Part shown: in pieces, positions 1-6,000 of the stretch | Numbering within the stretch: position 1 is the stretch's first letter | Layout: every line of letters starts with the position of its first letter | Virus record (IMG/VR): IMGVR_UViG_641522650_000003 | Origin: a virus | Taxonomy: Duplodnaviria > Heunggongvirae > Uroviricota > Caudoviricetes | Strand: one strand, 5' to 3' | DNA: 51,299 nucleotides | Position numbers: made by a program

Positions 1-3000
1 ATGGAACAGAAAGCATTATCTGCAGAACCCCGCAGATCATTTTCAAATGAGTTTAAACTTCAAATGGTTAAACTGGCTTCACAACCAGGAGCCTCTGTTG
101 CCCGTATTGCCCGGGAACACGATATCAATGATAACCTGCTGTTCAAATGGCTCAGGCTCTGGCAGAACGAAGGGCGCATATCGCGGCGTCTTCCGGTAAC
201 AACCTCTTCTGACACTGGCGTTGAATTATTACCTGTGGAGATAACGCCGGATGAGCCGAAAGAACCGGTGGCTGCTCTTACTCCGTCTTTATCTACTCAG
301 ACTACAGTTAGTGCCAGCTCCTGCAAGGTGGAGTTCCGTCACGGTAACATGACGCTGGAAAATCCTTCACCAGAGCTGCTCACAGTGTTGATCCGTGAAC
401 TGACCGGGAGGGGACGATGATCTCACACCCGTCAGGCACCCGCATCTGGCTCGTTGCTGGGATAACCGATATGCGTAAGTCTTTCAACGGGCTGGGTGAA
501 CAGGTACAGCATGTGCTGAATGATAATCCCTTCTCCGGTCACCTGTTCATCTTCCGTGGCCGACGGGGTGACATGATTAAAATCCTGTGGGCTGATGCTG
601 ATGGTCTGTGCCTGTTCACCAGACGCCTGGAGGAAGGCCAGTTTATCTGGCCTGCTGTGCGTGACGGCAAGGTATCCATTACCCGCTCGCAACTGGCAAT
701 GCTCCTCGATAAGCTGGACTGGCGTCAGCCAAAAACATCCCGCCTTAACGCACTGACAATGTTGTAAAAATGTCATGGCCGGATTATAAAAACGGCCATG
801 AATCAAAAATACCTCATTCGCATTGCAGAACTGGAATGCCAGCTCCGTCAGAAAGACCAGCAACTGAGTCTGGTTGAAGAGACGGAGGCCTTCCTGCGCT
901 CTGCACTGGCCCGCGCCGAAGAAAAGATCGAAGAAGATGAACGGGAAATAGAACATCTGCGGGCTCAGATAGAAAAACTGCGCCGGATGCTGTTCGGTAC
1001 CCGTTCTGAAAAACTGCGTCGTGAAGTTGAACAGGCTGAGGCCCTGCTGAAACAACGCGAACAGGACAGTGATCGTTACAGTGGGCGGGAAGACGATCCG
1101 CAGGTTCCCCGCCAGTTGCGACAGTCTCGTCATCGTCGCCCGTTACCGGAGCATCTGCCCCGCGAAATAAATCGCCTGGAGCCAGAAGAAAGCTGTTGCC
1201 CGGAGTGTGGCGGTGAGCTGGATTATCTGGGGGAAGTCAGCGCAGAACAACTGGAACTGGTGAGCAGCGCTCTGAAAGTGATCCGCACAGAACGGGTAAA
1301 AAAAGCCTGTACAAAATGTGACTGCATCGTTGAAGCACCGGCACCATCCCGTCCGATAGAGCGTGGTATCGCGGGCCCGGGGTTACTTGCCCGCATGTTA
1401 ACGGGAAAATACTGCGAACACCTGCCACTGTATCGTCAGAGTGAAATTTTTGCCCGTCAGGGTGTCGAACTGAGCCGTGCATTACTCTCCAACTGGGTTG
1501 ACGCGTGCTGCCAGTTAATGACGCCGCTGAATGATGCTCTGTACCGTTATGTGATGAACAGCCGCAAAGTTCACACTGATGACACACCAGTAAAAGTGCT
1601 GGCACCGGGCAGGAAGAAGGCGAAAACAGGATATATCTGGACGTATGTCCGGGATGACAGGAATGCCGGTTCGCCAGAGCCTCCGGCGGTCTGGTTCGCC
1701 TACTCACCGGACCATCAGGGTAAACATCCGGAGCAGCACCTTAGTCCCTTCCGGGGTATCCTGCAGGCAGATGCGTTTAATGGTTACGATCGGCTGTTCA
1801 GTGCCGAACGAGAAGGCGGCGCGTTGACGGAAGCAGGATGCTGGGCTCATGCGCGGCGCAAAGTCCACGATGTATATATCAGTACCAAAAGCGCGACAGC
1901 GGAAGAAGCCCTGAAACTAATCGGTGAGCTGTACGCCATCGAGCACGAAATACGCGGGTTGCCGGTGTCTGAACGCCTGGCGGTCAGGCAAATGCAGAGT
2001 AAACCGCTACTGACTTCCCTGTATAAGCTGATGCAGGAGAAAGAACACACGTTATCGAAAAAATGCCGTCTGAGAGATGCGTTCCGGTATATCAGGAAGC
2101 ACTGGGTTGCGTTGTGCAACTTCAGTGATGATGGTCTGGCTGAGGCGGATAATAATGCCGCGGAAAGAGCGCTTCGTGCAGTCTGTCTCGGAAAGAAAAA
2201 CTTTATGTTCTTCGGCAGCGATCACGGTGGAGAGCGTGGTGCGCTACTGTACGGGCTGATCGGCACCTGCCGACTGAACGGTATCGATCCGGAAGCGTAT
2301 CTGCGCTATATCCTGAGCGTACTGCCGGAATGGCCTTCCAACCGTGTTGACGAACTCCTGCCATGGAACGTAGCACTCACCAATAAATAAGCGTCAATAC
2401 GGTGCTCCGTTGACGCTGATATGACTTTCCGTGTCAAACCGGAATCTCTAATTTTGACGATTTTCTTTTTAGGTTTAATTCCCTGAGGGCGACGTAGCAG
2501 TAAATCCGACGGTGAATCACGCTGATATTCGCGGGTTGGATACCGCATTACAGAGGTCCGTCATATGAGCCTGCCACTTTCTTACGTCGCGAATCAGCTT
2601 TGTTCCGCCGTCGCCAAGCGCTAACGTGGGTTACTCTTGTACCGGGCTACGTCGCCTTCAGGGAACTGGTTATTCTCATTTTTTATTTGTGACATTGTGG
2701 TTGTTGTGCGACAGACATTGCTATTCGGCCCATATCCCAGATAAAACCCGCCAGCTCACGTGCAACAGCAACAATTGTAATATTGACATTCTTTCCTTTG
2801 GCCTGAAGTTTTCGATACCTCTTACAAAGCCTGAGTTGAGCATCCCATGCTCTGTCAATGACGGGGCGGGGTAAATTTTCCTGCCTTTTTTGTATTGCCG
2901 GACTGATGCGTGCCGGATGACGGTAACTCCACGCTGCCTCGACCAATAGCTTTCTGGCATAGCTGTTTCCGGCTTTGGTAATGCTGCCCTGATGTCTGCT

Positions 3001-6000
3001 TCCACCCGATGAATATTCTGATGGCGTGATACCAAACCATGACATCAGTTGTCGTGGATGTTCAAAACGGGTCAGATCACCCAGTTCAGAAATTAATCCA
3101 ACCGCAGTAATAAACTGAATCCCTCGCATGGCTTGCAGCGCCTCTACTACCGGATACAGCCTCCATTCGGTAACGGCCTCCTTCAGGGCGGATTCCAGCC
3201 GTTCACATTGTGCCTGCCGGTCTTCTATTGTACGACGGTGTTCGTCAAAAGCTAATTGTCGCCAGGGACTTTCGAATGAGTATTTGCTGAGCCAGCGTCG
3301 GTGTGCAGGGCCCCAATCTGCTCGCCCGACATAATGGACCCCATGAACCAGAAGAAACGATTTCAGACGTTGCCTTGCATGCCGTAAATCATCGCGGGCA
3401 GATGCCCATGCCCGGGCCAAATCCCGGAATGCCTCATCTTCAATACCGGGTACGTAGACAGCAGAAAGATCTCCTGCACGCAGTGAACGCACAAGTCTGA
3501 TGGCATCACGGCGATCGGTTTTAACCCGCTCCCCCGGTTTTTTCGAGATAAGTGAGGGGGCGCAGACCATGCAGTCAAAACCGGATTTCACCAGCCGACG
3601 ATAAAGTCCATAACCACAGGGCCCCGCTTCATAAACGATACTGACCTGCGATGACTTTGACCTGAGACGTTTACAAAGATTCTGAATATCAGTAGGTGAT
3701 GTGCCAATTTTACCCATCAGTTCAACAGGTTCTGAATTGATAGCATAAGCGACAGTAATCGATTCTTTGTGAACATCTAACCCGACGTACAATGTGTTAT
3801 TGTTGTTCATGCTGGCCTCCGTGGTGGAAATACCGGGGTGTAGCAACAGCTCACCCATGCGGCTCTGACAACGATGTTAACCCGCGTTAAATATCCCACG
3901 TTGGCCAGCATCTGTCTCACGGAAAGTCATACTGCCTTACTGCTCAATCAGCAGAACCGTGGCTCCAGCTGATTTCCGCAGTGATCATTATTAGCACCGC
4001 GTTCTGGATGTTCTGGCGTACCTGGCGCGGCGAACGCAACTGGCTGGAGAATATGCACGGGCATGATTATGAGCATCATCATCACGATCACGAACATCAC
4101 CACGACCATGGACATCATCACCATCACGAACATGGCGAGTATCAGGATGCCCATGCACGAGCCCATGCCAATGACATTAAACGACGCTTTGATGGTAGAG
4201 AGGTCACCAACTGGCAAATTTTGTTATTTGGCTTAACCGGTGGCCTTATCCCCTGCCCGGCAGCAATTACCGTGCTGTTGATATGCATTCAGTTGAAAGC
4301 CCTGACACTGGGCGCAACACTGGTCGTCAGTTTCAGCATTGGCCTGGCGTTAACGCTTGTCACCGTAGGCGTTGGCGCAGCAATCAGCGTTCAGCAGGTC
4401 GCAAAACGCTGGAGCGGATTTAACACTCTCGCTAAACGCGCCCCCTATTTTTCCAGTCTGTTGATTGGCTTAGTCGGTGTGTATATGGGCGTACATGGCT
4501 TCATGGGCATAATGCGATAACTCAATCCTTTAGGCTTGCATGTTATCTTCAGCCCAGGATGATTCTTAAATCAGCTATTTCCGCTGACTCTCTGCTCGCT
4601 AAGGATGCTTTTAGGGCATCCTTTCATTTACACTTTTTACGAAATCATGGGATCACTAACAAAATATCGCTTGTCAGTTATATTGTATGGCAGGAAAGAT
4701 ATGCGACTGATATTACAGATCCCCAAAGTGGAGAGTTTATGACCATTAAAAATAAGATGTTGCTGGGTGCGCTTTTGCTGGTTACCAGTGCCGCCTGGGC
4801 CGCACCAGCCACCGCGGGTTCGACCAATACCTCGGGAATTTCTAAGTATGAGTTAAGCAGTTTCATTGCTGACTTTAAGCATTTCAAACCAGGCGATACC
4901 GTCCCAGAGATGTACCGCACCGATGAGTACAACATTAAGCAGTGGCAGTTACGTAACCTGCCCGCGCCTGATGCCGGGACGCACTGGACCTATATGGGTG
5001 GCGCGTACGTGTTGATCAGCGACACCGACGGTAAAATCATTAAAGCCTACGACGGTGAGATTTTTTATCATCGCTAAGGTGATGCTGCCAACTTACTGAT
5101 TTAGTGTATGATGGTGTTTTTGAGGTGCTCCAGTGGCTTCTGTTTCTATCAGCTGTCCCTCCTGTTCAGCTACTGACGGGGTGGTGCGTAACGGCAAAAG
5201 CACTGCCGGACATCAGCGCTATCTCTGCTCTCACTGCCGTAAAACATGGCAACTGCAGTTCACTTACACCGCTTCTCAACCCGGTACGCACCAGAAAATT
5301 ATTGATATGGCCATGAATGGCGTTGGATGCCGGGCAACTGCACGCATTATGGGCGTTAGCCTCAACACGATTTTACGTCACTTAAAAAACTCAGGCCGCA
5401 GTCGGTAACCTCGCGCATACAGCCGGGCAGTGACGTCATCGTCTGCGCGGAAATGGACGAACAGTGGGGATACGTCGGGGCTAAATCGCGCCAGCGCTGG
5501 CTGTTTTACGCGTATGACAGGCTCCGGAAGACGGTTGTTGCGCACGTATTCGGTGAACGCACTATGGCGACGCTGGGGCGTCTTATGAGCTTGCTGTCAC
5601 CCTTTGACGTGGTGATATGGATGACGGATGGCTGGCCACTGTATGAATCCCGCCTGAAGGGAAAGCTGCACGTAATCAGCAAGCGATATACGCAGCGAAT
5701 TGAGCGGCATAACCTGAATCTGAGGCAGCACCTGGCACGGCTGGGACGGAAGTCGCTGTCGTTCTCAAAATCGGTGGAGCTGCATGACAAAGTCATCGGG
5801 CATTATCTGAACATAAAACACTATCAATAAGTTGGAGTCATTACCCCAGTTGTTTGCATTATTACTTTTGACATTAACACTCTGACTTTCTAAGGGGGCA
5901 ATCATAATAGTTTCATAATTGACTTTGACATTATTAGCTTTGACATCCGAAATCGTCACCCAATTAGCTGAGTCATTTTTTATCACCAATCCATTGCCAC

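Follow-up and report, generated by a model that had tools for sequence, protein, structure and literature searches.

An IS66-family element carrying ISSso6 borders a truncated rcnA gene at an inversion-type junction in Shigella boydii

Escherichia coli K-12 carries the genes rcnR, rcnA, and rcnB in series (b2105-b2107), of which rcnA encodes a nickel and cobalt exporter. An rcnA knockout accumulates cobalt and nickel (PMC7917058), and expression of RcnAB is governed by an RcnR-controlled region (PMC7055735). In complete E. coli genomes, rcnR and rcnA are contiguous in 5351 of 5426, so a split between the two genes is a derived state. Shigella genomes undergo pseudogenisation and rearrangement driven by insertion sequences (IS), with an expanded set of IS1, IS2, IS4, IS600, and IS911 (Hawkey et al. 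2020, PMC7373316; Seferbekova et al. 2021, PMC8072062). IS elements of the IS1111 group have subterminal inverted repeats of 11-13 bp, terminal extensions of 7 nt and 3 nt, and a long non-coding region downstream of tnp (PMC11187229). They insert without a target duplication, at one defined site within the terminal inverted repeat of a second mobile element.

The window, that is, the whole stretch of 51,299 nucleotides analysed here, is 100% identical to CP001063.1 (Shigella boydii CDC 3083-94, about 794087-845385). Its first 6 kb contain an rcnA-rcnB pair in the same order as in K-12, with 1130 of 1137 nt identical (3941-5077). In contrast to K-12, the S. boydii locus has no rcnR, no rcnR-rcnA intergenic region, no rcnA codons 1-81, and no downstream yehA and yehB, and the rcnA'-rcnB island of 1137 bp has an IS at either side. 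The locus resembles the known Shigella cases in its IS-disrupted gene, its IS1-adjacent deletion, and its inversion-type junction at an IS copy, whereas the agent here is a lower-copy IS66-family element. The rcnA break is a routine IS-driven pseudogenisation in Shigella. Its significance lies mostly in annotation. The break is mediated by IS66 with an inversion-type junction and is not a simple replacement by an IS110-family element.

The rcnA remnant occupies 3941-4520 on the plus strand. According to BLAST, alignment, translation, and Pfam, it begins with the third base of codon 82 and continues through codons 83-274 to the stop codon, equal to K-12 rcnA nt 246-825. K-12 rcnA-rcnB (L002 6156-7299) aligned with window positions 3934-5077 at 99.3%, and nothing further upstream matched. 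The homology appears to begin at 3934-3939 because the IS tip ...TTAC equals rcnA nt 242-245 by chance; strict homology begins at 3941. The abrupt start at 3939 in the preliminary description is thus right at the protein level (T82), and the missing portion is 81 codons plus 2 nt, not about 95 codons. Residues 82-274 are 100% identical to K-12, which includes the His-rich loop and the C-terminal hydrophobic segments that had been recognized earlier, together with one hydrophobic segment at about residues 88-107. With the missing codons, the remnant has lost the conserved motif HGLEPGHSK and the hydrophobic segments of the N-terminus. The Pfam family NicO (PF03824) was matched only at profile positions 76-285 of 287, short of full length since K-12 residues 1-81 are missing. 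Judged from its sequence, the remnant is the leftover of a NicO family member and not a functional member.

The break in rcnA lies at the right end of an IS66-family element. The body of this element occupies 1-2417 on the plus strand, with tnpA (1-420), tnpB (417-767), and tnpC (798-2390) in series. The earlier identification of an IS66 and IS110-family block was confirmed by Pfam (HTH_Tnp_1, TnpB_IS66, and DDE_Tnp_IS66 for the IS66 part) and by the RefSeq annotation of near-identical copies, 99.7% in the case of IS66. The terminal inverted repeats begin with GTAAGCG. The left repeat (GTAAGCGTAAACTGACC...) starts 86 bp ahead of the window, and the left end reads GTAAGCGTAAAC... in the upstream sequence of the source genome (L003). 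The inner part of the right repeat runs from 2391 to 2417, up to ...GTTGACGCT, and its last three nucleotides, TAC, stand at 3938-3940 on the plus strand, split off by ISSso6. These three nucleotides form the true boundary between the element and rcnA. An uninterrupted copy is 2506 bp long; in L012 and L015 its right end reads ...GTTGACGCTTAC, followed by the 8-bp duplication CATACACC.

Sister copies of the element are flanked by perfect 8-bp duplications (CATACACC, CCAGATGT, and TATTGGTA). In contrast, the flanks of the window copy do not match and form no target duplication, with AATCATTA on the left and TGCTCAAT on the right. The latter, at 3941-3948 on the plus strand (rcnA nt 246-253), is presumably the right 8-bp target copy. 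The left flank, outside the window, is the mlrA stop codon/yohO region in reverse. The 6 kb upstream of the window in the source genome carry bglX-yehYXW-yohO, which align in reverse to K-12 and end at the mlrA stop codon. These findings indicate that the window copy is a recombinant that still belongs to the family, and that the junction is of the inversion type, so that rcnR, the promoter, and the 5' part of rcnA are not contiguous with the remnant. A recombinant IS66 copy with other partner flanks (L021) shows that IS66-IS66 recombination occurs in these genomes. The same yohO-IS66-rcnA' junction was identical in at least six further assemblies besides CP001063.1, namely four drafts (L004-L007), the closed genome CP049281.1 of S. 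boydii 600657, clade 2 (PMC7545283), and CP026814.1. An assembly artefact is excluded, since the junction is common to seven independent assemblies, closed genomes among them.

The whole explanation that very probably applies is an IS66 insertion with inversion-type recombination, a nested ISSso6, and an IS1 insertion. In an ancestor of the S. boydii lineage that includes CDC 3083-94 and 600657 of clade 2, the 2.5-kb IS66-family element would have entered rcnA at nt 246-253 (codon 82-85) and duplicated TGCTCAAT. Another copy of this element would have lain in the opposite orientation at the stop codon of mlrA (target TAATGATT). The two copies would then have recombined to give the inversion-type junction, in which a hybrid IS66 copy joins the reversed yohO/yehW side to the 3' two-thirds of rcnA; on the K-12 map, the end points of the junction are separated by about 29 kb. 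ISSso6, which targets the repeat tips of IS66-family elements, would have been inserted into the right repeat either before or after these events, and IS1 would then have landed directly after rcnB with deletion of yehA-yehB. The outcome would be that RcnA-dependent nickel and cobalt efflux is abolished and that the rcnB ORF is left intact without its RcnR-controlled upstream region. Alternatively, an IS66 copy at the mlrA stop codon could have transposed intramolecularly into rcnA, giving the inversion and the second copy in one step. This route predicts the same junction, in which the left flank stays as it was and the right flank is new and bears one 8-bp target copy. However, the other copies of the element are simple insertions with 8-bp duplications, and recombinants with flanks of other partners occur (L021). 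The one-step route is therefore the less likely of the two, with perhaps a small chance of being correct, and the evidence that discriminates between them is not decisive.

The preliminary description had the 5' third of rcnA replaced by an IS110-family element. The comparison of empty and occupied IS66 ends, from which the ISSso6 boundaries were set, gives another picture. ISSso6 is a 1520-bp member of the IS110 family with IS1111-type anatomy, located at 2418-3937 on the minus strand within the IS66 right inverted repeat. RefSeq annotates it in L001 as 'IS110-like element ISSso6 family transposase'. Its transposase gene lies at 2683-3810 on the minus strand (ORF open to 3858) and matches Pfam DEDD_Tnp_IS110 (PF01548) and Transposase_20 (PF02371). 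In agreement with the IS1111 group, it has perfect 13-bp subterminal inverted repeats (2421-2433 and 3918-3930), terminal extensions of 3 and 7 nt, a 265-nt non-coding region downstream of the transposase gene (2418-2682), and no target duplication beyond a CT dinucleotide that is ambiguous at both junctions. It sits 3 nt inside the IS66 right repeat. Empty ends read ...GACGCTTAC and then flank in L012, L015, L016, and L017, and the occupied end in L019 reads ...GACGCT, ISSso6, TAC, and then flank, at the same prophage site and with the same CATACACC duplication as the empty copies L012 and L015. The insertion point in IS66 repeats is fixed across eight loci. Unlike the described IS1111 elements, ISSso6 targets the repeat tip of an IS66-family element (GTA/AGCGTCAACGG), and L020 shows that it can occupy the two ends of such an element. 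ISSso6 is, as read from these ends, a secondary, site-specific insertion in the IS66 repeat, and the locus shows the nesting of IS elements in a clear-cut form.

An insertion of ISSso6 directly into rcnA, or a deletion of the 5' third by ISSso6 itself, is very improbable. The ISSso6 end is just 3 nt away from rcnA sequence, and GCG-CT-TTAC in rcnA is loosely similar to the ISSso6 target GACG-CT-TAC. However, a direct insertion at this site predicts ...CTGC-CT-TTAC-TGCTC, whereas the window reads ...CTGC-CT-TAC-TGCTC, in which rcnA comes right after the IS66 tip TAC. The left neighbour of ISSso6 is the IS66 repeat and not rcnA, and at unrelated sites the IS66::ISSso6 block also terminates in CCTTAC, with proper 8-bp IS66 duplications (L001, L013, and L019). 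Direct insertion was rejected on the basis of the junction sequence and the left IS66 repeat.

As a separate and rather improbable reading, ISSso6 may be an 'IS of an IS', guided by RNA, that cripples the ends of IS66-family elements. Within its non-coding region, an 11-nt piece is a perfect complement of one natural target (L032), a length matched by none of 2000 shuffles. In comparison with the IS1111 group, this piece is a candidate for a seekRNA-type guide segment. No RNA family reached the gathering score when the whole window was scanned with Rfam.

The preliminary description found neither a start codon nor a promoter ahead of the remnant, and this was borne out. The reading frame is open from 3891 (TAA at 3888), and no ATG, GTG, or TTG occurs in this frame between the stop at 3888 and 3981. 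The possible internal starts are GTG at 3981, which had been taken for an ATG, and ATG at 4008, the first in-frame ATG. On the plus strand, no sigma-70-like site was found in 3700-4655. Directly upstream of the remnant is IS sequence, where the native start, promoter, and RcnR operator are all missing. BLAST found no rcnR in the window or in the 6 kb upstream, and the rcnR-rcnA intergenic region with the RcnR binding sites is gone from the locus. It is scarcely conceivable that read-through from the IS yields a working exporter from GTG 3981 or ATG 4008, although the frame is open and the undecayed residues retain both the His-rich loop and the hydrophobic segments of the C-terminus. About 30% of the protein, with the HGLEPGHSK motif and the hydrophobic segments of the N-terminus, is gone, the NicO match starts at position 76 only, a promoter-like site or canonical start upstream was not found, and the ISSso6 transposase is encoded on the opposite strand. 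RcnA is almost certainly non-functional, as predicted from the missing start codon, promoter/RcnR operator, and 81 codons, which supports the earlier proposal that nickel and cobalt efflux is inactivated. As the S. boydii lineage is predicted to be unable to make RcnA, it should be more sensitive to nickel and cobalt and accumulate more of both metals.

A simple interruption, with rcnR and the 5' part of rcnA just past the IS66 left end, would be compatible with the window alone, which starts inside IS66, but it is refuted by the reversed yohO, yehW, yehX, yehY, and bglX found there in the source genome, by the unmatched 8-bp flanks, and by the lack of rcnR/rcnA 5' sequence in L003. The 5' third, described earlier as lost, is indeed missing from the locus but not necessarily lost: the geometry of an inversion would at first preserve it elsewhere. 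A BLAST of rcnR plus rcnA nt 1-245 against the window and all fetched loci matched only an unrelated E. coli Logan contig (L008). The reciprocal junction, in which rcnR, the rcnA 5' part, and TGCTCAAT meet the IS66 left end, was not found in the window or the 6 kb upstream. Look-ups of TnpC, TnpA, and TnpB gave at least 14 distinct IS66 contexts in S. boydii-type genomes, and NicO or RcnR stood on the left in none of those listed. A homology search with RcnA residues 1-84 returned only frameshift, nonsense, or contig-end fragments and no RcnA-IS66 fusion ORF, and in the fragment clusters no member combined a break at codon 82-84 with a tail derived from an IS. Three predicted fusion proteins were looked up by exact match in the protein collection and were absent, although an S. 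boydii allele unlike that of K-12 could have escaped this search. Pattern scans of the genome and metagenome collections matched neither the predicted reciprocal junction nor, as positive control, the window's own junction, and are thus no evidence against the former. One 84-residue protein that ends at Q84 (P0145) was rejected as a fusion, as it consists of contig-end partial genes of diverse E. coli and one S85 stop mutant. Since the reciprocal junction was not found, the two-copy inversion is deduced from one junction only. The locus also illustrates IS-IS recombination revealed by unmatched target duplications. The region carries further rearrangements: mlrA is interrupted at nt 68 by an IS1, and other sequence stands in place of 14.7 kb of the yeh region.

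Downstream of rcnA, rcnB (4739-5077, plus strand) is a complete ORF of 112 codons that matches Pfam RcnB (PF11776, E = 7e-19), and its product is identical to K-12 in 112 of 112 residues. The statement that rcnB is complete holds for the ORF and not for the RcnR-controlled upstream region, which is lost. Without this region, expression of rcnB is doubtful. As the remnant and RcnB are identical to the K-12 proteins, the event is recent, without later decay. At the first base past the rcnB stop codon begins an IS1 copy (5078-5845, plus strand), recognized by Pfam InsA and DDE_Tnp_IS1, window self-BLAST, and reading of its ends. Homology to K-12 breaks off at 5077 and returns at 5846, equal to L002 10978, and 3678 bp of K-12 are missing beyond IS1, comprising yehA, yehB, and the last 51 nt of yehC.

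The text and 20 supplements of Hawkey et al. (PMC7373316) do not mention rcnA, and a literature search found no paper that links rcnA pseudogenisation to Shigella. A truncated RcnA of 109 residues (P0121, stop at W110), named from Shigella flexneri, occurs on at least 1000 contigs. It is likewise an inactivating rcnA lesion in a Shigella lineage, and it differs from the S. boydii lesion in being a point nonsense mutation at codon 110 instead of an IS break at codon 82, which indicates independent events. It can tentatively be proposed, as an idea that is still improbable, that loss of the RcnA exporter is convergent in Shigella, through the IS66 break and inversion in S. boydii and the W110 stop in S. 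flexneri. If true, this would point to relaxed or positive selection against nickel and cobalt efflux in the intracellular, human-restricted niche and not to random decay. The hint of an independent rcnA inactivation in S. flexneri is of interest at the population level.

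The K-12 rcnA-rcnB segment (positions 6156-7299 of the K-12 locus, L002) was aligned by BLAST with 3934-5077 of the window at 99.3% identity. Nothing upstream of 3934 aligns to rcnA, rcnR, or thiM, in agreement with the preliminary description, which had rcnA homology starting abruptly. In a base-by-base comparison, K-12 reads ...AAGCGCTTTAC followed by TGCTCAATCAGC, whereas the window reads ...CATACTGCCTTAC followed by TGCTCAATCAGC. Strict rcnA homology begins at 3941, which is rcnA nt 246. The preceding four bases, TTAC, are common to the IS tip and to rcnA by chance, and this chance match is the reason that the BLAST alignment runs back to 3934 and that protein homology is seen from 3939 (T82), the start first given. 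The part missing from rcnA is 81 codons and two bases, and not about 95 codons as initially estimated. The remnant (3941-4520) translates into residues 82-274 of K-12 RcnA without a difference, and its Pfam NicO match is confined to profile positions 76-285 of 287. The zero amino-acid changes in the remnant sequence indicate that the break is recent.

The reading frame of the remnant is open from 3891, after a TAA at 3888, and contains no in-frame ATG, GTG, or TTG upstream of 3981. The codon at 3981, previously read as ATG, is GTG, and the earliest in-frame ATG is at 4008. No sigma-70-like site was found ahead of the remnant on the + strand, and the earlier view that promoter and start codon are lacking is supported. 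The rcnA-rcnB spacer contains a single weak promoter-like match, at chance level. The rcnB gene (4739-5077) was correctly described as complete, being an intact ORF with 112/112 residues identical to K-12 RcnB, and its RcnR-controlled upstream region is gone.

Pfam searches placed the TnpA, TnpB, and TnpC of an IS66-family element in 1-2390 and an IS110-family DEDD transposase in 2683-3810 (- strand), near-identical RefSeq copies of which are annotated as ISSso6 family. Copies of this IS66-family element that are uninterrupted have an identical TnpC and finish with ...CCGTTGACGCTTAC, 29 nt past the tnpC stop; in two of them (loci L012 and L015) a perfect duplication of 8 bp, CATACACC, brackets the element. 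A 93% relative (L011) was also compared for the element end. The order in the window is ...CCGTTGACGCT, then GATATGAC...CATACTGCCT, then TAC, and then TGCTCAAT. Locus L019 is the prophage site of L012 and L015 with the duplication kept and a 1520-bp insert between GACGCT and TAC. The comparison of the empty and occupied sites shows that ISSso6 (2418-3937) sits within the right inverted repeat of IS66, 3 nt from its outer end, that TAC at 3938-3940 is the IS66 tip, and that the junction breaking rcnA belongs to IS66. The 5' third of rcnA was therefore not replaced by the IS110-family element, as had been supposed. Direct insertion of ISSso6 into rcnA at GCG-CT-TTAC was rejected, as it would leave CTTTAC and the window has CTTAC.

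The left end of IS66 lies 86 bp before the window start and is preceded by ...GTTAACGAATCATTA. Leftward of it, 5.9 kb of sequence (bglX, yehY, yehX, yehW, and yohO) is in reverse orientation relative to K-12 and breaks off precisely at the stop codon of mlrA (K-12 TAATGATT; ~2,215,595), and the right flank is rcnA nt 246 (~2,186,162) in forward orientation. Going away from the element, K-12 coordinates rise on both flanks, which is the signature of an inversion junction and not of a deletion. The 8-bp flanks of this IS66 copy are unmatched (AATCATTA vs TGCTCAAT), and sister copies with matching flanks carry CATACACC, CCAGATGT, or TATTGGTA. The simplest history suggested by these flanks is that an IS66 copy entered rcnA, that a second copy was present in inverted orientation at the mlrA stop codon, and that homologous recombination between both copies would have produced the inversion-type junction, with end points that K-12 places ~29 kb apart. 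The same junction would also arise by one-step intramolecular transposition, which is considered less likely. Recombinant IS66 copies with other partner flanks exist in related genomes (as at L021).

An inversion initially keeps the 5' part of the locus (rcnR, the promoter, and rcnA nt 1-245), which is expected at the reciprocal junction. No rcnR or rcnA 5' sequence was found in the window, in the 6 kb upstream of it, where the preliminary description had advised looking, or next to IS66 in at least 14 different contexts among S. boydii-type genomes. In the protein collection, no RcnA N-terminus ending at codons 82-84 through such a break was found. Pattern scans of genome and metagenome collections returned no matches, and the positive control was likewise empty, which leaves these scans uninformative. 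A later deletion may have removed the 5' part. An apparent 84-residue protein (P0145) was rejected as the missing N-terminal part because it represents partial gene calls at contig ends together with one S85 stop mutant (L022), and it marks no biological break point. Many unrelated E. coli contigs in the Logan collection (L023-L031) stop at rcnA nt 252-254 and give rise to this entry.

The region was reworked further after the inversion-type event. An IS1 copy (5078-5845) starts on the base right after the rcnB stop codon; beyond it, yehC is without its last 51 nt and yehA and yehB are gone, a loss of 3678 bp of K-12 in all. The yehC-yehD-yehE-mrp segment (5846 onward) has just 88.6% identity to K-12, compared with 97-99% for its neighbours. 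In the stretches 11554-15294 and 18817-19806, a 14.7-kb part of the K-12 map, from the yehF 3' part through the yehR 5' part, is replaced by a block of IS3-family elements and IS1, and a further IS1, in inverted orientation, interrupts mlrA after nt 68. Past 19806, the window departs from this K-12 region entirely.

The truncated RcnA ORF (179 residues from the GTG at 3981) is encoded on CP001063.1, and a 20.5-kb locus around this ORF in that record (L003) matches window 1-14520 with 100% identity. Since CP001063 belongs to Shigella boydii CDC 3083-94 (PMC2974192), the window corresponds to approximately 794087-845385 of that chromosome. The same junction occurs, identical, in the draft assemblies AMKC01, LPTG01, LPTH01, and LPTJ01, and in CP026814.1 and CP049281.1, the latter being the closed S. 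boydii 600657 genome, a clade 2 strain (PMC7545283). Its identity across these assemblies makes it a lineage marker and rules out an assembly artefact. The junction is absent from all 5426 complete E. coli genomes, and rcnR and rcnA are contiguous in 5351 of them.

RcnA is a Ni/Co exporter. RcnAB expression is under the control of RcnR, which binds two sites between rcnR and rcnA (PMC7055735). Cells with rcnA knocked out accumulate Co and Ni, and the action of RcnB is linked to that of RcnA (PMC7917058). The remnant has lost its start codon, promoter, and operator as well as residues 1-81, and with these residues the HGLEPGHSK motif and the hydrophobic segments of the N-terminus. We infer from this sequence that rcnA is a null allele, as the preliminary description had proposed. 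It is an ordinary instance of gene decay driven by IS elements, here in a public Shigella genome, and resembles cases reviewed previously (PMC7373316, PMC8072062). Outside the window, a 109-residue protein named 'RcnA [Shigella flexneri]' that ends before W110 (entries P0121 and P0130) was found in at least 1000 contigs. This W110 nonsense allele is an independent inactivating rcnA lesion in another Shigella lineage and might indicate convergent rcnA loss.

The two subterminal inverted repeats of ISSso6 match perfectly over 13 bp, the terminal extensions outside them measure 7 and 3 nt, and a 265-nt non-coding region (2418-2682) lies downstream of the transposase gene. Under the published IS1111-type criteria (PMC11187229), its sequence anatomy is assigned to the IS1111 type. 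It occupies one fixed site, 3 nt in from the end of the IS66 right repeat, at eight loci (the window, L001, L013, L014, and L018-L021); the empty target site is GTTGACGCTTAC, and CT is ambiguous at both ISSso6 junctions. At L020, both repeats of the IS66 copy, left and right, carry ISSso6. In parallel with IS4321/IS5075, which reside in Tn21-family transposon repeats, ISSso6 behaves as an IS targeting the ends of another IS, and its insertion probably immobilises the host IS66.

The segment CGTTAGCGCTT (2616-2626, - strand) lies inside the non-coding region and is the exact 11-nt complement of a natural ISSso6 target outside IS66, CCGTTAGCGCT followed by TAC, between mokC and nhaA in E. coli CFSAN029787 (L032). 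Complementarity of 11 nt was reached in 0/2000 shuffles. Against the IS66 tip, the segment forms 9 Watson-Crick pairs and one G-T wobble, with one mismatch. No Rfam match was found for the segment. CGTTAGCGCTT is a plausible candidate for the guide segment of a seekRNA or bridge RNA. At ~5087-5130 of L020, the left-repeat junction reads GTCATATC-AG-G-CGTAAAC vs GTCATATC-AG-CGTCAAC at the right repeat; the one extra G could reflect either a true 1-nt difference or an error in sequencing. Loci L018, L019, and L021 (~7624-8760, locus coordinates) contain 568 additional bp together with another copy of the ISSso6 left end, the join reading ...GGTAATGCT followed by GATATGAC. Since the sequence joined there is internal to ISSso6, a partial copy of ISSso6 has inserted into ISSso6 itself.
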